Made by a program: the position numbers and the translations under genes. The notes under the pieces are model-generated. The model had not been told where the DNA came from and made no database searches. It worked only from the letters and a program-made list of their open reading frames with translations. A DNA stretch of 41,837 nt from a virus (lineage: Duplodnaviria > Caudoviricetes): IMG/VR virus record IMGVR_UViG_3300017965_000005, positions 1 to 41,837 of that record; one strand, given 5' to 3'. Position 1 is the stretch's first letter, and each line of letters opens with the position of its first letter. Positions 9,545-37,943 of this stretch are shown piece after piece.

Positions 9545-10153
9545 CTAGACCTTGGTGGCCGCGGTGGCGGTCGGGAGGACATAAGAAACCAGCATGAAGG
9601 AGCGACCGGCGTTGCCGGCGGCGCCGACCGTCGTCACGATTCCGGAGATGACGCGCGCCGCGGCCGAGTAGGCGGCGGAGCGCAGGCCGGTCGTGGTCGA
9701 GAGGTAGGCTCCCGGCTTCCCTCCGGTCTGGGCGAAGTTCAGCTCCTCGCCGACCAGGAGGTCGGTGGCCTTCAGATCGATCCCGATGAACCAACCGTCG
9801 TCATCGGTAGCGTCCCCCACCTTCAGGGTGGCCGAGGTGGTTGCCGTCCAGAGGACGGTCGACCAGAACTTGATGTCAGTGATGAGCGCCCCGGCCGGGA
9901 CGGTGACGGAGCCGGTGTAGGTGCCGGCCCCGGTCGTCTCGGTGAAGGACACCATCTGGGCCTGCGGGATGAAGCCGGTCAGGCCGTCAATCTTGCCGAG
10001 CTCTGCCGCGGTGAGGGTGACTCCGTTGACGATGAAGTTGCCAGAGCTGTCGGCTTCGAGGAGGGCGCCGGTTCCCGGCGAGCCCTTCGATCCGATGCGA
10101 AGCTTCTTGACCTGGACGCCGGACTTCCGGTTACTGGTCTGTTCGTTAGACAT
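9545..10153 (-). CDS. Virion structural protein (decoration/fibre-like, 202 aa)
   Basis: Thr/Gly/Ala-rich beta composition; last gene of late operon. Confidence 0.7.
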   Translation of the reverse strand: MSNEQTSNRKSGVQVKKLRIGSKGSPGTGALLEADSSGNFIVNGVTLTAAELGKIDGLTGFIPQAQMVSFTETTGAGTYTGSVTVPAGALITDIKFWSTVLWTATTSATLKVGDATDDDGWFIGIDLKATDLLVGEELNFAQTGGKPGAYLSTTTGLRSAAYSAAARVISGIVTTVGAAGNAGRSFMLVSYVLPTATAATKV

Positions 10154-10171
10154 AGCTAAATCTTTCCGCCA

Positions 10172-10738
10172 TCAACATGGCAATGGCGCCGGGGCAGGAG
10201 TGCTCCGGCGGAAAGGAGTGACATGGAAGTTTTTCTGATGGAAGACCTGGACCTTGAAGCTGTCATCGAGGCGGCGGTCGACGATGCGCCGTCGCCGATC
10301 GTCGGTGAGCACGTCATGCGAATCGTCAACAAGGCTCTTGCGGCGGAGCGAGCCAGCATTCGGCGGGAGCTGTACGACTGGCTGGTCGGCGACATCGATC
10401 CGCGGGACGCGGGCCTTTACAACTCTCGGCGCATCGTCGACGAGATCAATCGCATCTGCCCGAAGGAGGGATAACTCATGGGATTCTTTCGCACCCTGCT
10501 CCGCATGGAACCCCCTCGTCCTACAGCCCTGGAGCTGGCCGAGGCAAACGAGATGCGCCTGAAGAACGCCAAAGAGGCCGCTGCCTGGGAGCGGCAGCGA
10601 CTGATCGTCGAGTGGCTGGTGTCTCGCGCTGGTGCCACGGGAATCGACGAAGACACGAAAGCAACCCTCTTTGTCATCGCCCGCCTGATCGAGGATGGCG
10701 AGCCGCTCAAGGCGGCTCGCCCTAAAGGGCGTTCTCAT
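10172..10738 (-). CDS. Bridge ORF 1 (188 aa), antisense to two + genes
   Basis: ATG overlaps upstream stop (ATGA); stop overlaps ATG of an 8-aa mini-ORF (10172-10146) whose TAA overlaps the next ATG. Confidence 0.4.
   Translation of the reverse strand: MRTPFRASRLERLAILDQAGDDKEGCFRVFVDSRGTSARHQPLDDQSLPLPGSGLFGVLQAHLVCLGQLQGCRTRGFHAEQGAKESHELSLLRADAIDLVDDAPRVVKARVPRIDVADQPVVQLPPNAGSLRRKSLVDDSHDVLTDDRRRRIVDRRLDDSFKVQVFHQKNFHVTPFRRSTPAPAPLPC
10223..10474 (+). CDS. Hypothetical early-type protein, antisense within late operon
   Basis: SD AAAGGAG; helical protein-like sequence. Confidence 0.75.
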   Translation: MEVFLMEDLDLEAVIEAAVDDAPSPIVGEHVMRIVNKALAAERASIRRELYDWLVGDIDPRDAGLYNSRRIVDEINRICPKEG

Positions 10739-10759
10739 GGTCGGTTGAATGCGAAGTAG
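10478..10759 (+). CDS. Hypothetical early-type protein, antisense within late operon
   Basis: SD AAGGAGG; AAAWERQRLIVEWL..IARLIE pattern; 25-nt tail overlap with gene 10735..11172. Confidence 0.75.
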   Translation: MGFFRTLLRMEPPRPTALELAEANEMRLKNAKEAAAWERQRLIVEWLVSRAGATGIDEDTKATLFVIARLIEDGEPLKAARPKGRSHGRLNAK

Positions 10760-11172
10760 AGTCCGACGATGGTAGCGAGGAGGCCGATTGCGCCGACGAT
10801 GATCTTGGTCGTCTTCGAGATCCCCTCCTCCCGATTCTCGAAGCGGGCGACTCGCTCGGCGAGCGCCCGCAGCTCGCGCTCCAGGGCATCCCTGCCGGCA
10901 AGGACCCATTCCTTCTCCGCGAAGGTCGCGGCCTGCCGGTCCATCTTGGTCTGGAGCTGGTTGTGCTGGTCGAGGCGAGCGGTCGCCGACTCCTCTGACT
11001 TAGCCCCGGACTTCTCCGCGGCGGCAAAGGCCGCGGCGACGAGCTTGTCCTGGGATGCCAGGGCGGCATCACGAGCCCTCTCGGAGGCGCCGAAGCGCTC
11101 CTCGTATCGGCGGTCCATTTCAGCCAGGACCTTCTCGATATGCTCCTTGAGGGTCGTGACGTCCCAGGGCAT
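10735..11172 (-). CDS. Coiled-coil protein with C-terminal TM helix (lysis-module-like)
   Basis: SD AGGAGAG; C-terminal IIVGAIGLLATIVGLYFAF. Confidence 0.7.
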   Translation of the reverse strand: MPWDVTTLKEHIEKVLAEMDRRYEERFGASERARDAALASQDKLVAAAFAAAEKSGAKSEESATARLDQHNQLQTKMDRQAATFAEKEWVLAGRDALERELRALAERVARFENREEGISKTTKIIVGAIGLLATIVGLYFAFNRP

Positions 11173-11958: not shown

Positions 11959-12260
11959 TTGCTTGCCTCGACCGGATGTCCGAGATCGATGAGGATCGCC
12001 TTCATCTCGGCCTTGGCGTACCGGTTCAGGCGCTCCAGGCGCTGCCTTGCGGCCTCAGCGAAGGCGGCGTCTCTTTTGGTGTCTCCATTCGGCATAGCCT
12101 CTGGGAGGGTGCGGGGGATGAGGAGGTAGCCAGCGCCCTTCGTGGTGCCGGCGATCGCCTGGGCGGCTTCGAGCGGGACGCCCAGATGCTCGGCGAGGGC
12201 CGCAGCCTGGCGATCAGGGGGGCAACAAACACCGAGAACACAACAAGCTCCTCCCGGCAT
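11955..12260 (-). CDS. Hypothetical protein with N-terminal CCVLGVCC (101 aa)
   Basis: SD GAGGAG before ATG 12260, 1 nt after upstream stop. Confidence 0.7.
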   Translation of the reverse strand: MPGGACCVLGVCCPPDRQAAALAEHLGVPLEAAQAIAGTTKGAGYLLIPRTLPEAMPNGDTKRDAAFAEAARQRLERLNRYAKAEMKAILIDLGHPVEASK

Positions 12261-12261
12261 G

Positions 12262-12549
12262 TCAATCTCCTCTCTTTTCCAGGTGACCGAGCACCCGGAT
12301 ATTGATTCCATTTTGTGTATCGGACGCCTTCTCTATAACGGACAGGCGTGCGTTCAAGTCAGCCAGCGTCTTGATGGTTCCACGATAGTTCTGCTCGTTC
12401 TCCTTGAGGTCGCCCCTGATCTCGGCAAGCGTGTTCTGCACGGTCAGGAGGGCCTGGGCTTGCCGGCCGTTCGAATTGGCGATGAGAACGGCGCTCCCAC
12501 CTATGGAGATCGCCAACGTGATTGGAATGACCAGTTCTCTTCCTGTCAT
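12262..12549 (-). CDS. N-terminal TM plus coiled-coil protein (holin/i-spanin-like)
   Basis: SD GGAGGT; LVIPITLAISIGGSAVLIA then heptad repeats; lower GC. Confidence 0.65.
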   Translation of the reverse strand: MTGRELVIPITLAISIGGSAVLIANSNGRQAQALLTVQNTLAEIRGDLKENEQNYRGTIKTLADLNARLSVIEKASDTQNGINIRVLGHLEKRGD

Positions 12550-12563
12550 TTAAACCTCCGGCC

Positions 12564-15500
12564 TCATCTTCCTGCCCTCAACCGGCGCTTCGCCTTGCGC
12601 TTGGCGCCCTGGATCATGAAGCCGATGGCTTCGTCGTCGTAGCCGTTCTGGCGGAGGATCTGGATGATCTCCGTCTGACGGGGCGAGTCATTTTCGTAGA
12701 GAGCCTGGGCGAAGAGGTTCTCGGCCTTGTAGGTCGACATCCCCTTCGACTCCGGGATCGAGATGAGGAGCTTCCGGAGGACGTCACCCGGGTCCTCGGC
12801 GTCCTGGAGGGAGAAGGGGAGGGCCATCTCGGCCGTGGGCTCCAGGCGAGAGGCGATGTCCTCGACCGGTCCCGGCACCTCACCGGTCTTCTCGCGCTCC
12901 CTGACCAGCTCCTCATAGGGCGAGGGGAACTCGGTGACCGACTTCCCCATGAGGCCGGCTGCCGCCCCCACCCAGGGGCTGGTCTTGCCGGCCAGGAACT
13001 TCATCTGCTGCGCCCCCGGCGTCCCCCAGGCGAAGTGAGGCAGCTCCTGGGCATGCTTCCCGATGCGGTAGAAGATCTTCCTTCCCTTGTCGGTCCTGAA
13101 AGGGGTCTCCAGGTCCATCTTGTGGCCCTCTTCGTTCTCCCACGGGAAGTGCGGTCCCTGCTCCGAGCCGGCAGTCAGGGAGTAGTTGAGGACCGAGAAG
13201 CCGGCGGCGAGCGCCGTGATGTTCGTCCAGTAGGTACGGCCGATGACCCGATGAACCGGATCGGAGGAGAGGGGGGAGAGCCCCGAGCTGATGGCCGAGA
13301 CGTTCCAGTCTGGGGAGAGGAAGATGCGCCGCATCCACTTCAAGGCTCGCGGGTCCGAGAACAGCCGGTTCCTGCTCAGCTCCCAGACCTGACCGCCGAA
13401 GTGGTTGTTGATGCCGGAGGCGACGGCTTCGCCGATCTCCTCGTCGGTCATCGCGGCGAGACGCGCCCTGGTGCGGTCGGTCAAAAAACGATTCGCCACT
13501 CCGAGCGCTCCGCGATCGCCGTTCCTGGCCGCCATGAGCTGCGCCTCCCACTGCTCAGCCGCCGCGATCTTGATCGGGCTGTGGAGAATCTTCCAGATCG
13601 CTTCGTCGTAATAGGCGGCGGTGGCGCGGAGGCCCTTCCCGGCGGCCCCCGCTGCCCTCGCGACCGCGCCCGCCTTGCCGGCGGCGCGGGTCATCATGTC
13701 CTCCCAATCGACCATGGCCCGCTGGAAGGAGTCGGTCATCATGTCGGCCGATGGCGCCTCCACTCCGAGGCCCCTGCGGACCCACTTCTCGGCGACCTCA
13801 CGAGTGAAGGGACTCGCCCAGCCGCGGCGCTCGGCGAGCTGCGCGAGGCCCGGTATGCCGCCGCCTCTCGAGGCCCATGCCTTCGCTCCTTTGACCGGCC
13901 CCATTGACTGCATGGCGGCGAGGCCGAGCTCGAAGGGGTGGAAGATCGAGCCGAGGAACTTGATCCGCTTAACGGTCCCCAGGAGGCGGTCGATCTTGAG
14001 CGGCTCGGCGACGTCTAAGACCGGCTTCAGCTCCTCCCAGATCTTGGGGTGGATCCAGAGGTCCCCCGGGGTCGTCGGAGTCCGCGGCGGCCGGAAGGTC
14101 TTCGGACCGAGCCCCTCGGTCCCCGGGAGCGACGGCTGCTCGATGACGGAGGGAGCCGTCCCACCCTCCGGGGTGTAGCGGTAGAAGCCGCCGGCCGTCT
14201 CGGCGGCCCGGCGGCTCTCGGCCTGGAGAAGTTCTGCATGGCGGACAGCCTCGGGGAGGGCGCGAGAGCTGGTCGCTGAGCGCTGGGCGGCCTTCTCCAG
14301 GACCGGCACGCCGGAGACCCGGACGTACCCCTTCGGCTGCTTCCCCATCGTGGCATAGGTCAGAGCCGGCCTGCTGTCCTGAAGGAGGGGCATGGTCGCA
14401 AGGTCGTCGACCAGGCCGCGGATCGCCTGGGCATGGGCGAAGACCTTCTCGGTCTCGGCCCGGAGCTGCGAGAAGCGGAGCGTCCTGGGCGTCCAGCCGG
14501 CGGCCATCGCCTCGGAGGGATTCAGGAACGTCCGGGAACGGGTGAGTCCCGGCGTAGCGCCCACCGAGCCGAAGGACAGAGGATTGACCGTCTTCACCCC
14601 CTTCGGCGGCACGTAGGTCATGTGCATGTAGTTCTTGACGAACCCCAGGTCCCACATGTCGGAGAGATCGTCCCACATCTGCTTTGTCTGCTCGCGCCAG
14701 GAGGCGACCTCCTGAAGGGCGGACTCGGCGTTCGGGTCAGCGAAGATCTGCTCGACCACCCGCCGCTTGGCGCCGGGCCTCTTGGCGATCCGGGCCGCCA
14801 CCTTGGCCGGCCGGTTCGCGTAGGACCTCGGATCTCCCAGCTCGTGGAACATCCAGGTCAGGGCCTCGTCGGTCTCTTTCGGGATGAGCTTCTGAAGCTC
14901 CTCCGCCCTGGCGCCGGCGCGGTAGCGGCCGAGGCGCTCAGTCGCTGCGTACTCCTTCCGCATGTGCCAGGCCGCCTCTTTCGCTGCCGCGTCAGCGGGC
15001 GGCAGGGGATCCGGGCGGAGCTTGATGAACCCTGCCTCGTTCGATCCTGGGCGAGGCCCGAGAGGAGGCAACGCCAGCGGCGCCTCGGCGAGGGGCGGTC
15101 CTCCGAGCCCAGAAGATACTCCGTCAATTACCTTCGTTGAGTCGAGAAATGGAAGGGGAGCGCCTTCTTTTAGGGTGTCGAATGGACCACCCATATTAGC
15201 GAGCGCTTCTTCGGCGACTACTGCGTTTGCTATTGCACCATCGGGATGATGGAAGGTTACGCGGACCCGTTGAAGCTCGGGCCTGAAGGTAAAGTTTGCT
15301 CCTGTCGCCGAGACTTGATGACCAGGAAACATGCTGGCTATGTCGGACGCCGTCACTGTTCCCTTGTTCCTCTCGAAAGACAGGATCAAGTCATCACCAT
15401 TTAACTCTGCCGCGCGCAGTAAAGGAGAGCCTGCCAAGGCTTCATCCCTAGAGGTGCGGCTCAATCCGAGAGGAGGTGATGCTGCTGATGACGGCCGAAG

Positions 15501-17300
15501 GCCGTCGAGTGATTCCGCAACCTGACCACTGAGAGGAGGTGATGCCGCCGCCCCCAGGGCCTCCGGGCCTGAGGGGGCGGCCTCCAGGCCGCGGAATCCG
15601 CCGGTCCTTCGGTGCTCCTTGAGGTAACCGCGGGCCATGATGGACTCGGGGGAACCGTCATCAGGAATCTTGGCCAGTGCGTCGTCAATCCATTGATTTG
15701 GTTTACCCTCTACTGAACCGATTCCGTAACGATGCAGGGTCTTCCCGAGAAGCTTCTGCTGCGCCATGCTGATGCCGGCGTCATCGGTGATACTGGCGGC
15801 CGACTGACGTCGAGTCGCGTGTCGACGCCCAACCCGCTCCGCGGTCTCGATTTCTTCGGGGGATAACAAGCCTCGCCAATCTTTGAAGGTCCTGGCGTAG
15901 AGGTCGAGGTACGGAGAGCTTCGAGGCGTGCCGGACTTGGCGCGCGAGAGCTTCGCGACCTGAATATCCCCCTCCGCCACCAGGACGAGCGAATCGTACC
16001 CCTTGCCGTTGGCCCATTTGACCAGCGCCTCCTCCGCCTTGTTGAACGGAGCCTCCGGCGGGACGAGCCCCATTGCCTTGGCTGACTTGGAGGCGCTCTT
16101 GTTGAGGACGAGTGGATTCGCGGGCGTAAATGTCTCGGCGGCCAGGTTATTACCACCGAGGCCGGTGAGGTGCCGCGCATAGGCGGTCTGGTCACCGACC
16201 GCATAGAACCTAATTCCCTTCACCGCTCCCTGATCAGGCTTGCCGAGTTGCCACCTGGTGAGAGGCAGATCACGCAGCTCGAAGGGGAGGTCCTCGACCG
16301 AGATCGGCCCTGCCGGCACCTCCCTCGCCAGGCGGCGAAGGGCCTCCTCCGGGCCAAGGCCGCCGACGTTGCGCAGCCGCAGGCCGGGATTGACCGCTGG
16401 CGGGGCCTGTGACGCACGATCTCCCTGCTGGAGGTAGGGTGGGGTGGGCGCTGCATCCTCGGTCTCCTTGAGCCGCTGTAGGCCCAATTCCACCTTGTCC
16501 AGGCGATCCTCGTAGTACGCCTTGCGGTAGCCGGGGTAACGGTTCAGGTTGTCGCGCAGGAGAGCGTCTGCCTCGTCGAGGTCCTGGAGCTTCCCGTAGC
16601 CCTTCTGGAGGGCGGCCTCGGCGCGAGCTCCAAGACCTGGCCGCTTACCAGCCGCGATCGCCGCCTCCTGGGCGGCCTCGGAGAGAGCGCGGGGCGCCTT
16701 GCCGCCCCCAGCGAGGGTTGGATCAACCAGCATGCCGGCCATGGTGGCGGCCTGATGGACGCCTACGGCAACCGGGGTCGGGAGATCCAGCGTGGCCTCG
16801 GCGAGGCGTCCCCTCGCCTCCTCCGTCCAGCGGCGGGTCGTATCAGCGACCGGGGCCAGGGGATCAAGCTTCAGGAGCCGCGCCTCATGGCTGTCCTGGA
16901 TGGCCTCAGCCATCGAGGGGTTGCCGAAGAGCTGCATATAGGCATCCGCCCGCTCGCTCTTCTTCTGCCGCCCTTTCGGGTCGAGATTCCCCGCCCCCCT
17001 CTTCAGGGTGTCGGCGGTCGCATTGAGCACCAAGCTCGGGAGGCGGGCGGTGCCGACGTTGACGTCGGCCGCCGTCGCCCCGGCGAGGCCGAGGGCGTCC
17101 TTGGCGATGGCGGGAAGAGAGGTGTTAGGGACCGGCACGGCGGTCGTGGCACGCTGGCCGCCCGGGACCTGCTTCAGGCGGCGCTCACCGGTCCTCGTGT
17201 TGACGAGAAAGATTCCCTCCTGGACCCATTCCGGGCCGGCGAGGGCGGGGTCGAGAGCTGGCCGGCTCGCCCCGAAGAGAGTCTGGTACCGGTCAGGCAT
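12564..17300 (-). CDS. Large internal virion/DNA-ejection protein (~1578 aa), polyvalent-protein-like
   Basis: Size and position after two other ejection-type genes; helical Ala/Gly-rich C-half; ATG 17300 overlaps bridge ORF stop (frame is open up to 17441). Confidence 0.75.
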   Translation of the reverse strand: MPDRYQTLFGASRPALDPALAGPEWVQEGIFLVNTRTGERRLKQVPGGQRATTAVPVPNTSLPAIAKDALGLAGATAADVNVGTARLPSLVLNATADTLKRGAGNLDPKGRQKKSERADAYMQLFGNPSMAEAIQDSHEARLLKLDPLAPVADTTRRWTEEARGRLAEATLDLPTPVAVGVHQAATMAGMLVDPTLAGGGKAPRALSEAAQEAAIAAGKRPGLGARAEAALQKGYGKLQDLDEADALLRDNLNRYPGYRKAYYEDRLDKVELGLQRLKETEDAAPTPPYLQQGDRASQAPPAVNPGLRLRNVGGLGPEEALRRLAREVPAGPISVEDLPFELRDLPLTRWQLGKPDQGAVKGIRFYAVGDQTAYARHLTGLGGNNLAAETFTPANPLVLNKSASKSAKAMGLVPPEAPFNKAEEALVKWANGKGYDSLVLVAEGDIQVAKLSRAKSGTPRSSPYLDLYARTFKDWRGLLSPEEIETAERVGRRHATRRQSAASITDDAGISMAQQKLLGKTLHRYGIGSVEGKPNQWIDDALAKIPDDGSPESIMARGYLKEHRRTGGFRGLEAAPSGPEALGAAASPPLSGQVAESLDGLRPSSAASPPLGLSRTSRDEALAGSPLLRAAELNGDDLILSFERNKGTVTASDIASMFPGHQVSATGANFTFRPELQRVRVTFHHPDGAIANAVVAEEALANMGGPFDTLKEGAPLPFLDSTKVIDGVSSGLGGPPLAEAPLALPPLGPRPGSNEAGFIKLRPDPLPPADAAAKEAAWHMRKEYAATERLGRYRAGARAEELQKLIPKETDEALTWMFHELGDPRSYANRPAKVAARIAKRPGAKRRVVEQIFADPNAESALQEVASWREQTKQMWDDLSDMWDLGFVKNYMHMTYVPPKGVKTVNPLSFGSVGATPGLTRSRTFLNPSEAMAAGWTPRTLRFSQLRAETEKVFAHAQAIRGLVDDLATMPLLQDSRPALTYATMGKQPKGYVRVSGVPVLEKAAQRSATSSRALPEAVRHAELLQAESRRAAETAGGFYRYTPEGGTAPSVIEQPSLPGTEGLGPKTFRPPRTPTTPGDLWIHPKIWEELKPVLDVAEPLKIDRLLGTVKRIKFLGSIFHPFELGLAAMQSMGPVKGAKAWASRGGGIPGLAQLAERRGWASPFTREVAEKWVRRGLGVEAPSADMMTDSFQRAMVDWEDMMTRAAGKAGAVARAAGAAGKGLRATAAYYDEAIWKILHSPIKIAAAEQWEAQLMAARNGDRGALGVANRFLTDRTRARLAAMTDEEIGEAVASGINNHFGGQVWELSRNRLFSDPRALKWMRRIFLSPDWNVSAISSGLSPLSSDPVHRVIGRTYWTNITALAAGFSVLNYSLTAGSEQGPHFPWENEEGHKMDLETPFRTDKGRKIFYRIGKHAQELPHFAWGTPGAQQMKFLAGKTSPWVGAAAGLMGKSVTEFPSPYEELVREREKTGEVPGPVEDIASRLEPTAEMALPFSLQDAEDPGDVLRKLLISIPESKGMSTYKAENLFAQALYENDSPRQTEIIQILRQNGYDDEAIGFMIQGAKRKAKRRLRAGR

Positions 17301-17667
17301 GGAGGAAGAGATGAGATTCGGAAGGAACGTTCCCGTCCCGGAATTTGATCGACCGATCCGCTCGACCAAGGAGGTCGAGCTTGCGGCCGAGGTGGGGGTC
17401 GCGAGGGCGCAGTATGCGGCGGTCTCCGCCCTGGCCGGCATCTATCGCGAGGCGCTTCGCATCCTGGCGAAGGGCCTCCTCGAGGCCGCCTCCGGTACCC
17501 TGGAGGGGCCGGACATCGAGGTCCTTCTGGAGAAAGCGGAATTGATCTTCTGGACGGAGTACGACCCGGACAACCCCGTCCATCGGGGGGCCTTCCTTGA
17601 ATTTGAGGTCTTTCAAGGGGACCGGGTCTGGCTGGCGACGGACTTCGCCCAGGAGCTGCTCAAGCAC
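17293..17667 (-). CDS. Bridge ORF 2 (124 aa), antisense to 17311..17769
   Basis: SD GGAGGAG; GTG overlaps upstream stop (GTGCTTGA); own stop overlaps downstream ATG (ATGCCTGA). Confidence 0.5.
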   Translation of the reverse strand: MLEQLLGEVRRQPDPVPLKDLKFKEGPPMDGVVRVVLRPEDQFRFLQKDLDVRPLQGTGGGLEEALRQDAKRLAIDAGQGGDRRILRPRDPHLGRKLDLLGRADRSIKFRDGNVPSESHLFLHA

Positions 17668-17769
17668 GGGCTCCTCCCTGCGCCGCCATCCGGATGCGGG
17701 CCAGGATCGACTGCGCCGTCATCCCTTTCTGAAGCTCCTGACGGACAAACGTCTCCTGCTCCGGAGTGA
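17311..17769 (+). CDS. Hypothetical protein (152 aa), antisense within late operon
   Basis: SD GGAGG at 17301-17305; globular-looking core; last 110 nt overlap gene 17660..19069. Confidence 0.7.
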   Translation: MRFGRNVPVPEFDRPIRSTKEVELAAEVGVARAQYAAVSALAGIYREALRILAKGLLEAASGTLEGPDIEVLLEKAELIFWTEYDPDNPVHRGAFLEFEVFQGDRVWLATDFAQELLKHGLLPAPPSGCGPGSTAPSSLSEAPDGQTSPAPE

Positions 17770-19069: not shown

Positions 19070-19072
19070 GGC

Positions 19073-20713
19073 TCATCCCTTTCCGTAGGTCTGCTGGTAG
19101 GCGTTGCCGAGACTCCAGCCGGCGGCGGCCCCGCCGACCGCCGCGGCTCCGGAGTTGATCGAGCCGAGGCCTGAGGGGGTCTGCCCGAAAGTCCGGCTCG
19201 TCCCGCCGCGGTCGGAGGCGTTGACGATGTCCATGTAGCGCGACAGGTCCATGAAGGGGACGTCGTGCTGGTAGCGCTGCTGGTCGAAGGCGAGGCGCTG
19301 GTTGGTCGCGTTGACCCCGGCCCTCGCGGCGTCGGCGTTCCTCTTCCCGATGTCGAAGCTGTTGCGGTTCTGGTCGGAACCGAGAGAGAGCTGGCCGGCC
19401 GCTGTCCAGTCGCGCATGCTGAGGCCGGTGATGTCAGGGGTGGCGCCCAGAGCGAAACGCTGGTCCTGGCCGTAGAGGTCGGCGAGGGAGCCCATGGCCG
19501 AGGACCTGAATTCATTCTGGCGCTGTCCCATGCCGACCGCGTTCTGAAGGGCGTCCAGGCGGGCGAGGTCCATCTGGCCCCTGAGGGCCGCGGCCGAGGC
19601 CCCGGCGGCGTTCGAGGAGTTGGCGGCCGACTGTGCCCGGTCCTCGGATGCGATCTTCTCGCGGCTGTTCCTGTCGAGGTAGGCGGTGTCGTAGCCGGTC
19701 CCCAGGTCGAGGCCGTGTTGGTAGAGACCGTAGTCCGCCATCGCGAGCGAGTCGCCGAGCTCGCGGGCCGAGGTGGTGTTCACGTCCCCCAGGGCCTGCG
19801 TCCAGTTGGACGAGCCCATGTTGCCGTTACCGACGTAGAGCCCCATCTTGTCGGCGATCCGCTTGTTCCACTCTTCCTCGTTCCTGCGGGCGATGGCGTC
19901 CTTGACGTTCTGGGGGGCGCCCTGACCGGCGAGGAGAGCCTTGATGTCGTCGACGACGCCGACCGGCCCCTCGGTGGGGCTGGGGGTGTAGGTCGGATTC
20001 GAGGCGTAGGCCGAGTTGACCGTGCCGTAGTGGACCTTGGGGCCGCCGCCTGTGGCGGCGCCACCGCGCGGCCGGGCGCCCTCGACGTCCGCGAAGAGCA
20101 TGTCCTTCAGGCGGCGGATGTCCGGATCATCCATCCCGCGGACCATGTCGGCCGTCTCGGTCCTGTAGCCGTTCCTGTCTTGGCCGGCCAGGGTGTCCGA
20201 GATGAAGTCCTCGGCCTCGCCGTAGAGGGGGTTGCCCTTCTGAGCCTGCTTGACGGCGGCATCGACGACGGTCCTGGTTTGGTCAGATTGCCCTGTCCAC
20301 TTCCCGTCCGGGGCCTGGCCTGGCTTCCCTGGCTTGAGCGGATCGGTGGGTTTCTTGCCCCCCTTCCCGCCCTTGCCGGTGGGCTTCGGGATGACGGTCT
20401 TGCCGTTCGTGTAGACGACGTTCGGGTCGGGATTGCCGCCCGGATTCGGACCGCCACTCCCGGCCGGCCCCTCGCCTGGCCGGTTGCCGGGACTGCCGTT
20501 GTTATAGGGTCCCTTCCAGGCCGGCGTTGGATCGTTCGGATTGAGGATGCCGTATGCCTGCTGCATCGCCCAATTCCGGTATCCGGCGGACTGGTCGGAG
20601 GGGGAGGTCGTGGTCGTCACGTCCGTCCAGCCACCCTTGGCGTTCTGCTTGTTGGCGTCGTCAGCGCCCTTCTTCGATATGTAGGCGCCTGCGATTGCCG
20701 CGAGCCAGGCCAT
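19073..20713 (-). CDS. DNA pilot/ejection protein (P22 gp7/gp20-like position)
   Basis: SD GGAGGT; TGATG coupling; N-terminal WLAAIAGAY, Gly/Ala/Asn/Gln-rich, C-terminal GAAAVGGAAAG. Confidence 0.75.
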   Translation of the reverse strand: MAWLAAIAGAYISKKGADDANKQNAKGGWTDVTTTTSPSDQSAGYRNWAMQQAYGILNPNDPTPAWKGPYNNGSPGNRPGEGPAGSGGPNPGGNPDPNVVYTNGKTVIPKPTGKGGKGGKKPTDPLKPGKPGQAPDGKWTGQSDQTRTVVDAAVKQAQKGNPLYGEAEDFISDTLAGQDRNGYRTETADMVRGMDDPDIRRLKDMLFADVEGARPRGGAATGGGPKVHYGTVNSAYASNPTYTPSPTEGPVGVVDDIKALLAGQGAPQNVKDAIARRNEEEWNKRIADKMGLYVGNGNMGSSNWTQALGDVNTTSARELGDSLAMADYGLYQHGLDLGTGYDTAYLDRNSREKIASEDRAQSAANSSNAAGASAAALRGQMDLARLDALQNAVGMGQRQNEFRSSAMGSLADLYGQDQRFALGATPDITGLSMRDWTAAGQLSLGSDQNRNSFDIGKRNADAARAGVNATNQRLAFDQQRYQHDVPFMDLSRYMDIVNASDRGGTSRTFGQTPSGLGSINSGAAAVGGAAAGWSLGNAYQQTYGKG

Positions 20714-21744: not shown

Positions 21745-21882
21745 GCTCTCTCCTCAACTCGGCTCGTAGAGAATCCAGGCGACGTTGCCGGCATCGGCCG
21801 CGACGGCGCTCGTGATGGTGAAGGAGGTACCGACAACCCGGGCCGTGTTGGCGAGGGCGCCGACAACCCCCACGGCGTTTGA
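20953..21882 (+). CDS. Hypothetical protein (309 aa), wholly overlapped by late genes
   Basis: SD GGAGGT; helical N-domain and coiled coil ILRLANRVRDLE..RIEELE..LEAVLR. Confidence 0.65.
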   Translation: MKDRDDIEQGWSEATEGLAGDLLDILDGVTANIRLRHLARLFYREGWEDKALKDFSRLLRRAMRDTKKEIQQPAPEAAPEEIERPLDGGAVDQGVAGPAPLGEAPLDERPEVEGVGGAGKLKSHSWSGGLYDFTANEHGPLLYGPLGENPPYPTVVLSGSYGALVNAEILRLANRVRDLEFQLAGEIMAHQGSKMVAEERIEELETRNHSVEASAEVICSLKDDLALRVGTLEAVLRTVASDLDPYAGFVAGPIVRGVLHRIDQALSSTRLVENPGDVAGIGRDGARDGEGGTDNPGRVGEGADNPHGV

Positions 21883-22536
21883 AAATGCATACACCCTGGT
21901 GTTGGCCGTCACGCTCGTGTTGGCCACCACCAGGAGGCCTGCCGCCATCACCCCCACGCCCATGCGGGCGTTCGCCCCCTCTTTGATCCGGAGGCCCGCC
22001 CCGGTCCGGGCAAGGATGTGGTTCCCGGAGGTGTCGTAGCGGGCCGCCTCGACGTTGTTCGTGCCGAGGACGAGGGGGGTGCTGTTCAAGGTCCCCACCG
22101 CGAGGCCGCTTCCGAGGGCCGTGCCACAGAAGCTCCAGGAGGCCGGGGTGAAGCCGAAGATCGTGGCGGCCGAGTAGGCCGAGCCGAAGACGATCAGCTC
22201 GGCGCGGCCTACGTTCGCCGCCACGCGGAGACGGGCGTCGGCGCTGGTACCGGTCGAGACGTTCTGGACCACGGCGATCGTCGCGGCGTTCTGGTCGACG
22301 TGGACGTCGAGGGGCTGCGTCGGGGAGGCTCCGACCCCGAGCCGCTGGTCGTTCAAGGTCGTCGAGACGATGGCCTGGCCGCCGGAGCGGCCGGCCTGAA
22401 GGACGGCGCCCCCGGTCGCCCCGGTCTCCAGGTTCTGGATGTCCCTTTCCGCCTGCCGGAAATTGTGATCCCACCAGGACTGTACCTGGGAAAGATCGAA
22501 GAGCTTCCCGAGAAGGCGGAAGCGGCCGGCACTCAC
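21754..22536 (-). CDS. Tail fibre/spike-like protein (260 aa)
   Basis: SD GGAGGT, GTGA coupling; RLGVGASPTQPLDV and PLVLGTNNVEAARY fibre-type repeats. Confidence 0.75.
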   Translation of the reverse strand: MSAGRFRLLGKLFDLSQVQSWWDHNFRQAERDIQNLETGATGGAVLQAGRSGGQAIVSTTLNDQRLGVGASPTQPLDVHVDQNAATIAVVQNVSTGTSADARLRVAANVGRAELIVFGSAYSAATIFGFTPASWSFCGTALGSGLAVGTLNSTPLVLGTNNVEAARYDTSGNHILARTGAGLRIKEGANARMGVGVMAAGLLVVANTSVTANTRVYAFSNAVGVVGALANTARVVGTSFTITSAVAADAGNVAWILYEPS

Positions 22537-24185
22537 GGTACAACCTCCCATGCGATCCAGAGTCCCGGCATTGCCCGCAGCTCGGTTCCGGCGGTGTTCG
22601 GAAGCTGGAGCTCGAAGTACTGCCAGGCTCCCTGACTCTCGACGAAGGGGAAGAGAGAGGTGTCCTCATCGGCATTACTGACGAACGTCGCCGTCTCCTG
22701 GCGCGGGTTGACGATCGTCGCTCCGCTCATGACGGTCTTGAAGTTCGGATCATTTGAGGTCGTGACAGTGACGCTCAGAGCCGCCGGCAGAGGCTCATAG
22801 GAACCAGGGGCCGGAACGCCCGTGAAGCCGACCTCGGTCGAAACGAGAGGGATCGCTCCGGTGATCCTCACGGGGGCAGCGACGGGGGCCTCCTGCTGCG
22901 TGAGAGCGAGGGCCTGCTGCCGAGTGACGAGCCGGGCGGTGAAGACGACCGACCGGGAGAAGGTGAAGCGGTAGGAGCTGGTCCCGGCCTGGGTCGTCGC
23001 GACGATCCCGGCAAGGGTCTCGGTCGTCGACGGAGTCGGCAAGCTTCCCAGGGTGCAGACCGAGGTCGTCGTGCCGGCCTCGCCGACGCCATTCCAGGTC
23101 GTGAACTCGCCGGTCACGGTCGAGTAGAAGATGCCCCTGGTCTTCGTCGCGACGCCGTCCGAGAGGCCACGATAGGCCCAGAAAACAACTCCGGTCTGGG
23201 GGTGGTAGGTGCCCTGCACCCAGAGATCCTCCTCGGTCATCGTCGAGGGGACCGAGCGGTTGACGGCGCCGGGCGAGAAGTCGACATCTGCCAGCCAGGC
23301 CGAGATGGCATAGGGGCTGATCCGCTCCGGCGGGTTCATTCCTACCTGCTTGTAGAAGTAGTAGTCCTGGCCGAGGAAGTAGATCGCTCCCTGGTCCCCG
23401 CGGACGACCGAGGAGGGCCAGTTGGTGCCGACGTTGTCGGCCAGGACATCCTCCCTCCAGGTGCCGCCGTTCGTACCGGTGACGTCACCGGTGAACTGGA
23501 GGGCATGCATCGAACCACGCTTCAAGACCCTGGCGAACTCGCCACCCACTGCCCGCATGATCTGGCCCGGGCGGCTCCGGATGAAGCCGGTGCCGCCGCC
23601 GCCCGACGCGGCGGCGTCCCAGACCGCCGGGTTTCCCGGTACGCTCCAGGCGTAGGCATCGGGGCCAAAGGTGGCGTTTGCGAGGTCGAAGGCCATCATG
23701 TAGTTCTTGACGACGCAGATGTCCCGCGCGATCGGCTTGAAAGTCGAGGTCGTCGTACCGTCGACGAAGCTCCCGGTGTTGCCGGCGCGGACCTGGAGGT
23801 TGTCGATCCGGTTCGTGTACCAGACGTCGTTTCCGAACGACGCCCACCGGCCGGCGGGCGGCTCGCCAGCCGCGGCGAGCCCGCTGCGGATCGAGGTCCA
23901 GGTGTTCGCTGTCCGGTTGTAGACATAGATGTTCGTCTTCGAGCTGTGCAGCTCGGTTGACTCATCGCCAACATAGGAAGCTGCCGAAGGGTTCGCGGGC
24001 CAGATGTGGGCGTAGACCGAATTGAGGGCCGAGTCGGCGACCGTGTTCGCGCCGGACTTGAGCCCCCCTTCCAGGGGGCGCTTGACGCCATAGGCCGGAA
24101 CGACGTTCTCGGCCAGCGCCAGTCCGTCTCCGTGCTCGCCGGCCCCCCACTGAAGGGTACCAAAGTCGATGAAGGTCAGAGGCAT
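22533..24185 (-). CDS. Tail nozzle/head-stabilisation protein (P22 gp10/T7 gp12-like)
   Basis: 550 aa, beta-propeller-like Trp/Gly strands; GLALAENVVP N-terminus; synteny after adaptor. Confidence 0.75.
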   Translation of the reverse strand: MPLTFIDFGTLQWGAGEHGDGLALAENVVPAYGVKRPLEGGLKSGANTVADSALNSVYAHIWPANPSAASYVGDESTELHSSKTNIYVYNRTANTWTSIRSGLAAAGEPPAGRWASFGNDVWYTNRIDNLQVRAGNTGSFVDGTTTSTFKPIARDICVVKNYMMAFDLANATFGPDAYAWSVPGNPAVWDAAASGGGGTGFIRSRPGQIMRAVGGEFARVLKRGSMHALQFTGDVTGTNGGTWREDVLADNVGTNWPSSVVRGDQGAIYFLGQDYYFYKQVGMNPPERISPYAISAWLADVDFSPGAVNRSVPSTMTEEDLWVQGTYHPQTGVVFWAYRGLSDGVATKTRGIFYSTVTGEFTTWNGVGEAGTTTSVCTLGSLPTPSTTETLAGIVATTQAGTSSYRFTFSRSVVFTARLVTRQQALALTQQEAPVAAPVRITGAIPLVSTEVGFTGVPAPGSYEPLPAALSVTVTTSNDPNFKTVMSGATIVNPRQETATFVSNADEDTSLFPFVESQGAWQYFELQLPNTAGTELRAMPGLWIAWEVVP

Positions 24186-24207
24186 GGATTCTCCAGGATC
24201 AAAAGCA

Positions 24208-24717
24208 TCAAACCGTTACCCATGTACCGGTCTGAGTTGAAGCTGCCCACATATTTGTGTTGACGTATTCCAGGACGATATAGCTGCCCTTGGTTGATGA
24301 CTTGACTATGCCACCAGCCAACGAAGCGACGCTGCCGGCGTAGATGACGTGCGATCCCTGGGCCTGAACAGTCAGCTCGTCGGTCCCCAGAATGACGAAG
24401 GCGTACCAAGCCCCGGGAGCCGGAGCAGCCGGCAGGGTGACTTCATCACTGCCGCCGCCCACAATGATCGAGACAGTCCTGCCAATATCCGCGGCGGCGA
24501 GGGTGATGCCACCGGCGCCCGCCCGACGCGCCCTGAGAGCACCAGAGAGGGCGTTCGCATCGTCGATCAAGACGCCTGTCGCTTGCACTGTCGCGCCGCC
24601 AGTCCCATCTGCGCGGAGAATGGCATTGTCGGTCGAGCCCGTCGAGCCGCCGATGCCGCTCCCGCTGCCCCCACCGGCGAGGCCAGGTGGCGTCTCGCCG
24701 CCCCAGAAGAACCTCAC
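24208..24717 (-). CDS. Minor structural/fibre-like protein (169 aa)
   Basis: GTGA coupling; GSTDNAILRADGTGG and VTLPAAP..G..Y fibre motifs. Confidence 0.7.
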   Translation of the reverse strand: MRFFWGGETPPGLAGGGSGSGIGGSTGSTDNAILRADGTGGATVQATGVLIDDANALSGALRARRAGAGGITLAAADIGRTVSIIVGGGSDEVTLPAAPAPGAWYAFVILGTDELTVQAQGSHVIYAGSVASLAGGIVKSSTKGSYIVLEYVNTNMWAASTQTGTWVTV

Positions 24718-25061
24718 GAGATCGCCGCCTTTCGGCAGGAGACAATCACCCAGCAGGCGGTCGCGTTGAAGAACGAGAGCACCTGCCCCGGGGCAACCGA
24801 GAAGCTCTCACCCTGCATGACAGGCTCGGCCGCCGTGCCGTTCGTGACCGCCGCGCTGGGAGCGGCGGCGGTCGTTCCGGAGGCGTTCACGTAGAGGAGG
24901 CCGGCGGAGTACTTGACCCGAATGTGGTTGACTCCGGTCGGTACCGTGAAGGCACCGGCCGTCCCAGGGGCCGTGTTCAGGTCGACGACCTGGTTGTACT
25001 TCGAAACCGGAGGAGTGTCGGCCTGCGTCCTCCGGTTGATCGCAACGATCTCAGCAGCCAT
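24714..25061 (-). CDS. Small structural protein (115 aa)
   Basis: SD AGGAGG; beta-rich. Confidence 0.75.
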   Translation of the reverse strand: MAAEIVAINRRTQADTPPVSKYNQVVDLNTAPGTAGAFTVPTGVNHIRVKYSAGLLYVNASGTTAAAPSAAVTNGTAAEPVMQGESFSVAPGQVLSFFNATACWVIVSCRKAAIS

Positions 25062-25070
25062 TCTACCCTC

Positions 25071-25799
25071 CTACTCGTGCGTCCAGTACCGGTTGCCCCA
25101 GAGGCGCCGGTCGTCGGTTTCGTTGCCTTCCACGCCCGTCCAGGCCGCGCGGGCCTGGCCGGAGGGCTTGACGTGCTGCCGGCGCTCCTCGAAGAGAGAG
25201 AAGAGAGCCTCGTCTCCCGAGACCTTGGCAAAGCCGGCGCGGCCCTGGTCCTGGAAGAGCGGGGTCTTGTAGAAGATCTCCAGGGTCTTGTGCTTCAGGG
25301 CTTCGAGGCCGGCGTCGAACCAGTCGTTGGTCTGGGTCGTCGAGGCTGTCGTGATGAGGACCCCGTCCGCCGTGTTCCGGCGGGCGTCCTTCGTGTAGTC
25401 GAGGTAGAGGACGAGGGCGCTGTTCGGCGGCGGCCCGAGGTAGAGCTTGCGGTCGTGCCAGGAGCGGCCCCGCGGGTACATCGTCGAGACCTCGTCCATC
25501 CAGAAGCGGAGCTCGTCCATGCTGACCTTGTTGATCTCGATCGGCTGCGACCCCACCTTGTAGTAGAGCCGCCGGACCTCCAGAAGGTCCTTGGGAAATC
25601 CGGTAGTCGTGCTGTCGTAGGTCGCCTGGCTGGCGACTGTCGTGAAGCTCGCCTCGTCCTCGGTGAATGTGGTCTTCTCCTTCGAGAGGAAGGTGAGGGC
25701 CTCGACGATCGACTGCTTGAGGATCGTCGAGGTCTTCGAGGTCTTCACGCTAATCTGCGCATAGAGCAGATCATGCAAAGATGTAAACGTCTCAGCCAT
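25071..25799 (-). CDS. Head-to-tail adaptor (T7 gp11/P22 gp4-like)
   Basis: Size, synteny, FPKDLLEVRRL..YPR..LYLGPPP..LYLDY pattern. Confidence 0.75.
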   Translation of the reverse strand: MAETFTSLHDLLYAQISVKTSKTSTILKQSIVEALTFLSKEKTTFTEDEASFTTVASQATYDSTTTGFPKDLLEVRRLYYKVGSQPIEINKVSMDELRFWMDEVSTMYPRGRSWHDRKLYLGPPPNSALVLYLDYTKDARRNTADGVLITTASTTQTNDWFDAGLEALKHKTLEIFYKTPLFQDQGRAGFAKVSGDEALFSLFEERRQHVKPSGQARAAWTGVEGNETDDRRLWGNRYWTHE

Positions 25800-26451
25800 A
25801 ATTCACCATCCAGAAGGAGGATGAATGTTCAAAGCACTGGATCTGTTCTGTTGTGCTGGCGGAGCCTCGGAGGGCCTCCGCCGCGCAGGCTTCGAAGTGA
25901 CCGGCGTCGACATCCGGCCGCAGCCCCACTACTGCGGGGACACCTTCGTGCAAGCCGACGCCCTGGAGTTTCCACTGGAAGGGTACGATCTCATCTGGGC
26001 GAGCCCTCCGTGCCAGGCATTCACGGCCTACAAACGACGACCATCCCATGTCGCGCCGTGCCAGAACCTGATCCCGGCGGTGCGGGAGCGCCTCGCTGGT
26101 TTGCCCGCGTTGACGATCATCGAGAACGTCCCTGGAGCACCGCTGCGCCGCAACTTGATGCTCTGCGGATCGATGTTCGATCTGAGCGTTCGCCGCCACC
26201 GCCTCTTCGAGCTCAGCTTCGAAGCCATCCAACCGACGTGTCGGCACCAGGATCAGGCGCCGCGATTCCCGCCGGCCTCGAACCGTCACAGCCTCCGGCG
26301 TACGGTCGAGGTAGGTGTCTGGAGGATTCCCCTGGAGGTACAGCGGGCCGCCATGGGGATCGACTGGATGACCCGCGAAGAGCTCTCGCAGGCCATCCCG
26401 CCCGCCTACAGCGAGCACATCGGTCGATGCGCCATGGCGGCTCTTGATCAC
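25792..26451 (-). CDS. Bridge ORF 4 (219 aa), antisense to the methyltransferase
   Basis: SD GGAGGT 8 nt before GTG overlapping upstream stop (GTGA); stop overlaps adaptor ATG (ATGGCTGA). Confidence 0.5.
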   Translation of the reverse strand: MIKSRHGASTDVLAVGGRDGLRELFAGHPVDPHGGPLYLQGNPPDTYLDRTPEAVTVRGRRESRRLILVPTRRLDGFEAELEEAVAANAQIEHRSAEHQVAAQRCSRDVLDDRQRGQTSEALPHRRDQVLARRDMGWSSFVGRECLARRARPDEIVPFQWKLQGVGLHEGVPAVVGLRPDVDAGHFEACAAEALRGSASTTEQIQCFEHSSSFWMVNYG

Positions 26452-26469
26452 CGGCCAGGACCTCCGTAG
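25825..26469 (+). CDS. Short DNA (cytosine-5) methyltransferase
   Basis: Motif I DLFCCAGG, IV WASPPCQ, VI IIENV, X-like QAIPPAYSEHIG; SD AAGGAGG. Confidence 0.88.
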   Translation: MFKALDLFCCAGGASEGLRRAGFEVTGVDIRPQPHYCGDTFVQADALEFPLEGYDLIWASPPCQAFTAYKRRPSHVAPCQNLIPAVRERLAGLPALTIIENVPGAPLRRNLMLCGSMFDLSVRRHRLFELSFEAIQPTCRHQDQAPRFPPASNRHSLRRTVEVGVWRIPLEVQRAAMGIDWMTREELSQAIPPAYSEHIGRCAMAALDHRPGPP

Positions 26470-26960
26470 GCGACCCACTCGTCGACCCCGGCGGCCGGCG
26501 TGGTCGCCGCCGCCAGGACCTTGTAGCCGAGGACGGCCCAGCCGCCCGGGTTGGGGACCTGGAGGCCGGCTCCGCCGGTCCCCAGGATGATCGACTCGAC
26601 CGCGGTGACCGCGGCGGAGAAAGGGGCGTTAGCGGAGGCGTCGTAGACGGTGACCTCGCCCGCCACGGCGCCCAAGGCGTCGTAGTACCACATGGTGAGG
26701 TCCATGTTCAGGGTGGGGCCACCGGTGTCGTGGTCGGCCGTGCGGAGGCGCTCGATGCGGTTGAGCCAGCCGCCGCCCGGGAGAGCCATGAGGGCGACCC
26801 GGTCGCCGATGTCGTCGACCGAGGTCGCGGCGATGGTCAAGCTGACCTGCTCCGACCAGAATGCGTCGCGCTTGTAGGGGCGCGACGCGATCGGGCTGAA
26901 GCCCTGGGTGTTCGAGGTGTCGGCCTGGAAAAGGCTGGAGTATGCGGTTGCGGCAGCCAT
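26448..26960 (-). CDS. Capsid decoration/cement-like protein (170 aa)
   Basis: 3 nt after capsid stop; SD GGAGG; beta-sandwich-like. Confidence 0.7.
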   Translation of the reverse strand: MAAATAYSSLFQADTSNTQGFSPIASRPYKRDAFWSEQVSLTIAATSVDDIGDRVALMALPGGGWLNRIERLRTADHDTGGPTLNMDLTMWYYDALGAVAGEVTVYDASANAPFSAAVTAVESIILGTGGAGLQVPNPGGWAVLGYKVLAAATTPAAGVDEWVAYGGPGR

Positions 26961-26963
26961 GGC

Positions 26964-28145
26964 TTAAGCCTCCGTGGTCGCTTCCGTGTAGGAGTGATAG
27001 ATGGCCGAGCCGAAGCTCTCGCCGTCGATGTGGAGGCGCTTGAAACCGAGGCCGGTGTGGTACTTGATCGACTCCCGCTCGTGCTCCATGTCCGAGGTGT
27101 AGTCGACGTGGTTGCCGTTCTCGTAGCCCTTCATCCACCAGAGCAGCGCGGCATGGCTCCCGAGGATGATGTTGGGCTGGCAGTTGGCGACGATGCCGGT
27201 CGCCGGAGTCGTCGCGTTGGCCGCGACGCCGTCCGCGGCGAGGGGCAGCCACTCGGCCGCCACGTAGATGACGTCGTTGACCGACTTGATTGCCGTGGTC
27301 TTCGAGAGGGCGCTGTTGTCGAAGCCCATCCCGCCGGCCATCTCGGCCAGGTCGATCTTCTCGAACTTCGAATCCGGGTCCGAGAACTTGATCTGGTTGA
27401 TCCCCTCCTGCGTGGTGACGCAGAGGAAGCCGGAGCCGAAGGCGGCGAGGTTCATCTTGGTCAGGGGCCACTTGACGCCGAAGCGCTTGGTGGTGAGCTT
27501 GGCGATGAAGCGTGCGACCCCGACGTCCGAGAGGATCGCCGAGCTGTCGGCGGCTACGGCGGCAGTCGTGGTGAGCGGGGTCCCGGAACCCGAGTCGGCG
27601 AAGCCGATGTGCCGGGTGTCATAGTGCGTCACCTGGTTCATCCCGGACATCTTGTGGTCCGGGTAGTGGGAGAGGCCGGTGAAGGTCGTCCCCGAATTGT
27701 AGCGGGTGTCACCGGCCAACTGGCGGTAGAAGCTCCGCTCCATCCATACCGCCGTCGAGTCGTTGGCGTTCTTCCACTGCTCGTCTTCGAGGTTGCGCTC
27801 CGTGCGCTGCTGGTCGCCGGTGCCGTGAGTCAGGTAGAAGTCGTAAGGGGAGCAGTACTCGCAGAGGATGCGGAACTTCAGGGGTTCCGGGGCCGAGCGC
27901 TCGACGCCGATGACCGGCTCGTTGCGGCTCTTGGGGACCGGGTTGTTGTCGGTCAGGCGCATGAACAGGAACTCCTGCTCCAGGCCGGGCCGGCCGCCTT
28001 CGTCGTCGATCTCGATGATGGGGGCCTGAGACTTCCGATCCCCCCTGAGGAAGAAGAGGAGCTGAGGAAGCTCGCTCTCCCAGGTGGTTGTGTAGGAATT
28101 GAGCACCCTCGCCCATTGTGAGGATGCGGGAACGGTCGGTGCCAT
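26964..28145 (-). CDS. Major capsid protein (393 aa)
   Basis: Position after portal/scaffold, size, own promoter; fold not verified. Confidence 0.8.
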   Translation of the reverse strand: MAPTVPASSQWARVLNSYTTTWESELPQLLFFLRGDRKSQAPIIEIDDEGGRPGLEQEFLFMRLTDNNPVPKSRNEPVIGVERSAPEPLKFRILCEYCSPYDFYLTHGTGDQQRTERNLEDEQWKNANDSTAVWMERSFYRQLAGDTRYNSGTTFTGLSHYPDHKMSGMNQVTHYDTRHIGFADSGSGTPLTTTAAVAADSSAILSDVGVARFIAKLTTKRFGVKWPLTKMNLAAFGSGFLCVTTQEGINQIKFSDPDSKFEKIDLAEMAGGMGFDNSALSKTTAIKSVNDVIYVAAEWLPLAADGVAANATTPATGIVANCQPNIILGSHAALLWWMKGYENGNHVDYTSDMEHERESIKYHTGLGFKRLHIDGESFGSAIYHSYTEATTEA

Positions 28146-28318: not shown

Positions 28319-28348
28319 AGGATACACTGGTACCAAGAAGGGAGTCAA
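28319..28348 (-). promoter_or_regulatory. Sigma70-like capsid operon promoter
   Basis: TTGACT-18-TATCCT; -10 lies within GGTACC-N10-GGTAAC inverted repeat. Confidence 0.65.
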
Positions 28349-37917: not shown

Positions 37918-37943
37918 CATTCTAGGATCTCTCATCCTAGAAT
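37914..37943 (+). promoter_or_regulatory. Near-consensus sigma70 promoter with overlapping operator
   Basis: TTGACA-18-TAGAAT; perfect inverted repeat ATTCTAGGAT-N5-ATCCTAGAAT at 37919-37943. Confidence 0.8.

Follow-up and report, generated by a model that had tools for sequence, protein, structure and literature searches.

Overlapping stop and start codons such as ATGA and TGATG are an established means of translational coupling, and temperate phages carry morons, accessory genes found between virion genes and variable among close relatives, which typically bring a promoter and a terminator of their own, flanking them in extra non-coding DNA. In noncontiguous operons, including tha/ith of the S. 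aureus phage 80alpha, an antisense gene with its own promoter is nested in a phage operon, which permits opposite expression states, and transcriptional interference and an inhibitor protein are described in passages of that work (PMC11087260). A long codon-aligned reverse open reading frame (ORF), kept open by avoiding the codons CUA, UUA and UCA, is described for the ambigrammatic alphanarnaviruses in passages of PMC7010960. Here we report on the late operon of a podovirus-like phage represented by a whole virus record of 41,837 nucleotides (nt) from a soil metagenome run (IMG/VR record IMGVR_UViG_3300017965_000005, referred to here as the window). Its minus strand encodes a P22-type portal, a terminase and an SU10 adaptor, and its plus strand has DnaB along with small genes. 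Five plus-strand genes, which we refer to as cargo, are found at four sites, each between minus-strand late genes, and are crossed by four stop-free minus-strand frames, the bridges. This bridge pattern is real and well beyond chance, and we think it likely that the backwards cargo is crossed by open late-strand frames because only those insertions survive which leave the late message continuously translatable.

The bridges share their junction types and the proposed re-initiation with ordinary translational coupling, from which they differ in that what is coupled is an ORF formed by another gene's reverse strand, probably without a role as a product. Like morons, the cargo is present in some relatives and absent or replaced in others, but unlike morons it comes with almost no non-coding DNA, has genome-like GC content and overlaps late genes at both ends. 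The arrangement of antisense genes between co-oriented operon genes is also that of noncontiguous operons, though compared with passages of PMC11087260 only the window has a stop-free and doubly coupled operon-strand frame, same-frame stacking, and cargo within a loop. A codon-aligned reverse frame open over a gene is shared with the narnaviruses, which are eukaryotic RNA viruses with one genome-long reverse ORF, whereas the window has local ORFs in a DNA phage operon which are set by stop/start coupling, and at its third-position GC content (GC3) much of the codon avoidance is background (compared with passages of PMC7010960). By analogy, the bridges would work like translational coupling within a noncontiguous operon with local ambigrammatic coding, and we did not find this combination of a coupled antisense bridge in an operon in the literature searched, outside which most subscription papers and supplements lay.

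A sequence-only reading of the window had claimed that four minus-strand ORFs cross the cargo without stops and start on, or within 9 nt of, the upstream stop codon. All four are open (188, 124, 343 and 219 codons for bridges 1–4), the remaining two minus-strand frames across each bridge have 1–12 stops apiece, and the starts lie at -4 (ATGA), -8 (GTGCTTGA), +9 (TTG) and -4 (GTGA) relative to the upstream stop. The Shine-Dalgarno (SD) sequences described for three of the four bridges are matches of 5–6 nt, with bridge 1 having none, and those of the plus-strand cassettes are strong, with matches of 5–7 nt. With the bridges included, the gaps in the late chain from the capsid gene (28145) to the last gene (9545) range from -19 to +22 nt, and the earlier figure of 22 nt for the largest untranslated gap therefore stands. 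Two further statements were only partly upheld. Bridges 2 and 4 (with the stop 7 nt into the ATG) and bridge 3 (on the ATG) do end in overlap with the start of the downstream gene, but bridge 1 ends 19 nt before the start of the 202 amino acid (aa) gene, on an ATG at 10172 (TGATG) which is in another frame than the start at 10153. The downstream genes were also said to be SD-poor, and this is true after bridges 1 and 2 (no SD), partly so after bridge 4 (GGTGA), and untrue after bridge 3 (GGAGGTG). Overlooked earlier was that cargo genes c1a and c1b lie in one frame (TAA CTC ATG), as a continuous bridge needs. The 3' ends of the cargo genes overlap late genes and their starts are found 11–70 nt from, or within, the downstream late gene, and in the case of c2 the SD sits opposite the start of the 1578-aa gene.

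Such frames could be no more than shadow ORFs, produced as GC-rich genes avoid TTA, CTA and TCA codons and as tight packing puts starts and stops near junctions by chance, and openness by itself does mean little, as the sequence-only reading had cautioned. These antisense-stop codons are rare throughout the genome (~0.5% of codons; 38/7791 in late and 17/3873 in early genes), many genes have open shadows, and an unbridged antisense gene in G001, a distant relative (44.8 kb, IMG/VR), also has a partly open shadow. In the codon-shuffle check suggested earlier (a synonymous redraw with genome codon use), the frames of bridges 1–4 stayed open with probabilities of 0.48, 0.60, 0.24 and 0.32, and the joint openness probability of the four was 0.021 with no single gene significant. 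Across this genome, an aligned antisense-frame start falls within -8 to +10 of a stop-like triplet in 98/674 cases (12/674 with an SD of at least 5 nt), and an off-frame stop ends 0–7 nt into an ATG in 67/416. As the start and SD of a bridge were possibly inherited from the old junction, we left these out of the chance product and counted only the frame match (the start being in the permissive frame four times out of four, or 1/81, as claimed), the ends of bridges 2 and 4, openness, and the shared frame of c1a and c1b. This gave a conservative product of ~2e-6 for the window, with about 9e-4 for the G001 bridge alone, both of which are post hoc, assume independence and use the window codon table for both genomes. 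These values stand against shadow ORFs, as does the stacking of two and of three cargo genes in the same frame and the retention of the frame in a close relative after replacement of the methylase gene (c4). Among homologs of that methylase, moreover, only 8/53 with GC3 of at least 0.7 have a fully open antisense frame (10/86 of the full set, which combines six genome-derived proteins with the 80 best among 352 viral matches). We regard the shadow explanation as largely refuted and give it very little credence.

A close relative of the phage, about 90–94% identical to the window in the aligned genes, was found in runs X2–X4 of one study, and in X3 much of the cargo has been swapped. Reading the swaps as segment lengths (that of the bridge 3 front coming from record coordinates), the interiors differ from the window at bridge 1 (236 to 134 nt), bridge 2 (346 to 121 nt), the loop of the GNAT gene contained in bridge 3 (194 to 239 nt), the bridge 3 front (390 to 222 nt) and bridge 4 (649 to 112 nt). 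The length changes in these bridged segments (102, 225, 45, 168 and 537 nt) are all multiples of three (5/5), as against 0/3 for the replacements outside bridges and genes (14 to 504, 530 to 733 and 329 to 850 nt, or changes of 490, 203 and 521 nt). In X3 the methylase is gone from bridge 4 and the frame is kept (219 to 41 codons), and bridge 2 is reduced from 124 to 50 codons. The retention of junctions in relatives, which had been proposed as a check, could be seen at bridge 2, where 40 of the 499 tabulated differences, spanning 17199–18047, include none at 17281–17313 or 17660–17701, and 8/11 of the differences listed between X3 and the window in the c2 tail are at third positions of the late gene (counted by hand). 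The methylase of another relative (P0007) runs on to match the reverse strand of the end of the 170-aa gene, so that this relative likely carries the methylase at the same site as the window.

The short X3 forms could also be taken as near-ancestral, with the bridges a historical relic, under no present selection, of cargo entry in frame into small dispensable late ORFs, the frames having not yet decayed. Small coupled ORFs are indeed present elsewhere in the operon, and the coupled starts and SDs of the bridges could be inherited along with the short in-frame versions of 41 and 50 codons seen in X3. However, the 121-nt form of the c2 site in X3 retains the plus-strand SD and ATG and so resembles other cargo rather than an empty site, in G001 these sites are direct junctions and a bridge lies elsewhere, and in-frame entry in 5/5 cases would itself imply a filter. 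We consider a relic of this kind unlikely.

G001 has a portal 31% identical to that of the window and the same late gene order, with direct junctions at the sites of bridges 2 and 4 and of the bridge 3 front; its homolog of the 1578-aa gene adjoins its upstream gene directly. It has a bridge of its own at a site which is a direct overlap in the window. This 413-codon ORF (L088:8128-9369) is coupled at both ends, with a GTGA start, an SD of GAGGT and an ATGA end. The three antisense genes that it spans share one frame, and it also runs across a 54-nt spacer. This spacer, between two of the genes (L088:8491-8544), contains a GC-rich inverted repeat, and the bridge nonetheless passes through it in frame. 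Comparison cases lacking a bridge were also found, one being a G001 antisense gene which lies behind a terminator-like hairpin and is not bridged, and the others being the scaffold–capsid gaps of the window and G001, which contain promoter-like sites and have no spanning ORF (all single controls). No mutual match was found at E 0.05 when the window cargo proteins were compared with those of G001 by tblastn.

The sequence-only reading had treated all four bridges as the same kind of element, and this was not borne out as bridge 3 is a GNAT gene interdigitated with cargo. Bridge 3 has the GNAT motif and matches PF00583 (21.5 bits against a cut-off of 20.7), with two blocks (residues about 143–200 and 254–343) which align with the two halves of a ~150-aa GNAT-family protein, and the GNAT profile matches solved acetyltransferases in PDB (E 1.5e-5). 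AlphaFold2 modelling of residues 144–343 gave block pLDDT scores of 90–98 in the GNAT halves and 44–76 in the insert, which is placed between two strands. On the evidence of profile and model, bridge 3 holds a complete GNAT acetyltransferase-family protein, which is split in a loop by an in-frame antisense insert; it differs from the wider family in having this antisense gene in the loop and about 142 extra codons in front. Cargo gene c3 fills the GNAT loop, reads the antisense of the N-half, and then continues as a second segment opposite the ~142 front codons, and the two genes are thus interdigitated. The GNAT is found just before the ejection-protein genes in two phages, a slot which may correspond to that of T7 gp13 or P22 gp14 (a literature look-up gave no confirmation).

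A full-library search with bridge 3 returned 36 proteins, of which 35 are GNAT-like and phage-size and one is unrelated, and when sorted by eye 20 of these were compact, nine had both halves plus an added segment whose position was the same in each, and six had the C-half only. Two of the proteins from close relatives, P0013 and P0014 (known as proteins only), are open equivalents of bridge 3 in which the GNAT halves are conserved and the loop inserts are different. In G001 the GNAT starts with GTGA on the stop of the gene before it, and this same loop holds an antisense gene of 108 aa that is led by an SD and has a TTGACG-19-TATACT sequence upstream. Word-indexed searches produced no shorter homologs of c3 and nothing for the last 149 residues of bridge 3, and no loci were recovered with the GNAT sub-alignments.

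The recurrence of unrelated inserts at one GNAT site (9/36 matches), together with the six C-half-only proteins, would also be expected if the inserts were removed or skipped by way of introns, ribosome bypassing or DNA excision, so restoring the ancestral junctions and a compact GNAT. Removal would need neither an open frame nor a new coupled stop, there were no Rfam matches, group I/II intron structures included, in the window or in the G001 sequence L088, and no edge motif shared among seven GNAT inserts was apparent by eye. The structural model, furthermore, accommodates the insert as a low-confidence loop. Removal is accordingly given little weight and seems to us quite improbable.

The peptides of the bridges might instead be functional and, for example, act on the cargo during lysis as inhibitors or regulators, in the manner of Ith towards Tha; the phage noncontiguous operons described in passages of PMC11087260 offer a precedent for a small antisense partner with a function. 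The first 65 residues of bridge 3 also align with those of P0013, which begins at the bridge 3 start position (P0014 begins differently), though similarity here is expected because the plus-strand gene is conserved. Family searches with the bridge 1, 2 and 4 peptides gave no match, PADLOC had no match for 9/10 cargo proteins tested and the tenth was the methylase, and in X3 the lengths of bridges 2 and 4 vary freely. The functional-peptide explanation is the one we find hardest to credit, and bridges 1, 2 and 4 would probably yield peptides only as by-products.

Continuous translation of the late strand would operate as follows. Having finished the virion gene upstream, a ribosome would re-initiate at the bridge start that overlaps its stop, read the cargo antisense in the sole frame that GC-rich codon use leaves nearly stop-free, and terminate where the next virion gene starts, thereby supplying the SD-less 1578-aa and 202-aa genes, the latter by means of a relay from bridge 1 through an 8-codon mini-ORF. 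Translation of the bridge would also shield the RNA from Rho or nucleases. Site 3 would follow this rule within a gene, with cargo accommodated in frame in the tolerant GNAT loop and ahead of the GNAT. The register of insertion was probably filtered (one in three), using the starts and SDs of the old junction, with later avoidance of TTA, CTA and TCA in the cargo, and the coupled start and SD may date from the ancestral junction and not have arisen after the insertion. We infer translation across the bridges, the promoters and the benefit (re-initiation or protection from polarity) from the sequence, and favour re-initiation as the main benefit at bridges 1 and 2, since the next gene has no SD, and assembly-gene read-through at bridge 3.

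Cargo genes are likely to use their own promoters within late coding sequence. A -10-like box (CATAAT, 25797..25802, plus strand) lies over the adaptor gene start codon 22 nt before the c4 start, a consensus match only and one of three such matches on the plus strand in 9545–36000. Nothing above background was found in the promoter scan before c1a and c2, and the scan was at background level overall. Another -10-like box (TATAAC at 12334, plus strand) is inside the AT-richer 95-aa gene, with no clear gene after it. No minus-strand terminator-like sites were called in the bridge 1 flanks or in bridges 2 and 4, with weak ones inside bridges 1 and 3, and none were found on the plus strand at the cargo ends; in total there were 12 such sites compared with 10.1 in shuffles.

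Several findings weigh against selection for a translatable late strand. The frame-keeping in X3 is read from the lengths of the replacement segments, and of the five swaps that keep the frame only the two at bridges 2 and 4 escape constraint by a cargo or GNAT frame, which by itself amounts to 1 in 9; the GNAT loop change is forced by the GNAT, and those at bridge 1 and the bridge 3 front are possibly forced by the cargo frame. The gene after bridge 3 has a strong SD and bridge 1 needs the extra mini-ORF. The GNAT could have an internal start at the in-frame ATG 21366 or GTG 21324, for which an SD is weak or absent, and the six C-half-only GNATs could be stop-interrupted, though these are equally explained by gene-caller truncation beside divergent cargo or by short contigs. 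The C-richness of bridged RNA does not exceed that of the late genes (C/G of 0.89–1.22 compared with 1.02–1.25), so nothing singles out Rho. Finally, the unrelated phage L012 has a methylase of this family in backwards orientation within an operon-like run, flanked by co-oriented primase-side and SSB-like genes (L012:3626-4258), with six antisense stops, no bridge and a 125-nt gap before the next gene, from which it follows that bridging is not obligatory everywhere. Sufficient flank was available for 75/86 of the methylase loci, and of the four flagged by script as antisense on both sides only L012 was upheld. L078, flagged by script as a further bridged methylase, was rejected as it is co-oriented and in an early cluster, and L039, L084, L064, L030 and L072 were rejected as they are not between two opposite-strand genes; the remaining four open methylase cases were judged by script alone.

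Taken with these points, selection for translational continuity, as first proposed from the sequence, is supported by the nulls, the frame-preserving swaps in X3, and the G001 bridge with its unbridged control, and stands without a uniform bridge type or an SD-poor rule for the downstream genes. We lean towards a two-strand rule of acquisition, by which cargo would enter the late operon backwards and only where its register leaves the late strand translatable. This would apply between genes, where the bridge ORFs are disposable, to several genes stacked in one frame, and to the loop of a conserved assembly gene, where the outcome would be interdigitated genes whose two strands each read through domains of the other. 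The ORF would be selected for being translated and not for its product. If true, an ORF can be retained for no other purpose than its crossing by ribosomes, and some dismissed 'shadow' ORFs would be functional parts of operons. The bridges would also offer a natural and swappable test system for how far translational coupling and polarity constrain phage genome order, and they suggest a rule for designing gene additions within operons, as well as a way in which long antisense overlaps and new protein loops arise. It should be noted that real genes get missed in such arrangements, as the gene callers of public collections annotated the plus-strand cargo and missed the full bridge 3 / GNAT frame. 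The positions of the bridges, cargo and flanking genes are listed in Table 1.

Table 1. Positions in the window of the bridges, cargo genes and flanking late-operon features.
Feature	Position	Strand	Remarks
Last late gene, 202 aa	9545..10153	-	No SD; terminator-like hairpin 3' at 9516-9496
Relay ORF, 8 codons	10146..10172	-	10 codons from in-frame upstream ATG 10178; stop overlaps SD-less start of 202-aa gene
Bridge 1, 188 codons	10172..10738	-	ATGA start on stop of 145-aa gene; no SD; no family match
Cargo c1a, 83 aa	10223..10474	+	No family assigned; interior 236 nt replaced by 134 nt in relative
Cargo c1b, 93 aa	10478..10759	+	No family assigned; frame shared with c1a
Likely ejection protein, 1578 aa	12564..17300	-	No SD
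Bridge 2, 124 codons	17293..17667	-	GTGCTTGA start with SD; ATGCCTGA end
Cargo c2, 152 aa	17311..17769	+	No family assigned; final 36 codons run on into antisense of 469-aa gene
Bridge 3, 343 codons	20713..21744	-	TGATG-coupled to 546-aa gene
GNAT C-half	about 20985-20713	-	Residues about 254-343
GNAT loop insert, about 55 codons	between N-half and C-half	-	
GNAT N-half	about 21318-21145	-	Residues about 143-200
Bridge 3 front, ~142 bridge codons	21744-21319	-	
Cargo c3, 309 aa	20953..21882	+	Start opposite edge of GNAT C-half
Head-tail adaptor	25071..25799	-	PF24175 SU10_adaptor; 3' of bridge 4
Bridge 4, 219 codons	25792..26451	-	GTGA start, SD GGAGGT; ATGGCTGA end
Cargo c4, C5 DNA-methyltransferase-like	25825..26469	+	PF00145, phrog_363
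Major capsid protein	26964..28145	-	24% identity to G001 protein matching phrog_334
Promoter-like TTGACT-18-TATCCT	28319..28348	-	In unbridged 342-nt gap before capsid gene

Relatives of the capsid protein were not found in IMG/VR, GTDB genomes or GenBank phages, and the metagenome scan gave only the window's own contig. Alignments of the adaptor and tail protein recovered G001 alone, and in GenBank phages the terminase and the tail protein had only weak single matches and the GNAT had none.

The extra or replaced DNA of X3 outside the bridges is located at window positions 19068–19083 (504 nt), 12234–12564 (850 nt) and 24194–24725 (733 nt), and the 504-nt insert, which separates the 546-aa gene from the 469-aa gene, is possibly another antisense cassette. 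In the 1578-aa gene several internal segments within 13400–17130 are replaced in a relative, one of them in frame (512 to 899 nt), marking a variable region of the likely ejection protein, and the gene carries 18 of the 38 late antisense-stop codons. The possibility that plus-strand shadows bridge the cargo genes to one another was rejected given these 18 antisense stops in the 1578-aa gene. A 5-codon ORF (12567–12550, minus strand) overlaps the stop of the same gene and ends right before the next ATG, and might be a relay or due to chance.

Elsewhere on the minus strand, the 265-aa gene at 21754–22551 has a K1-lyase C-terminal-like domain (PF24146) at its end and is likely part of a tail spike. 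The portal–scaffold gap is filled by a Cys-rich 56-codon ORF with CxxC pairs (29808–29638, minus strand) having ATGA and GTGGCTGA overlaps, which is probably a real small zinc-binding gene, and the terminase–portal gap is filled by a second short ORF ending ATGTCTGA on the likely portal start at 31972. No terminal repeat was found in the window. Two long stretches on the early side appear to be non-coding (37917–38372, with a hairpin at 37918–37943, and 40252–41837). A TTGACG-17-TACTCT sequence (36140–36112, minus strand) ends 6 nt before the ATG at 36105, which suggests that the first late gene is nearly leaderless.

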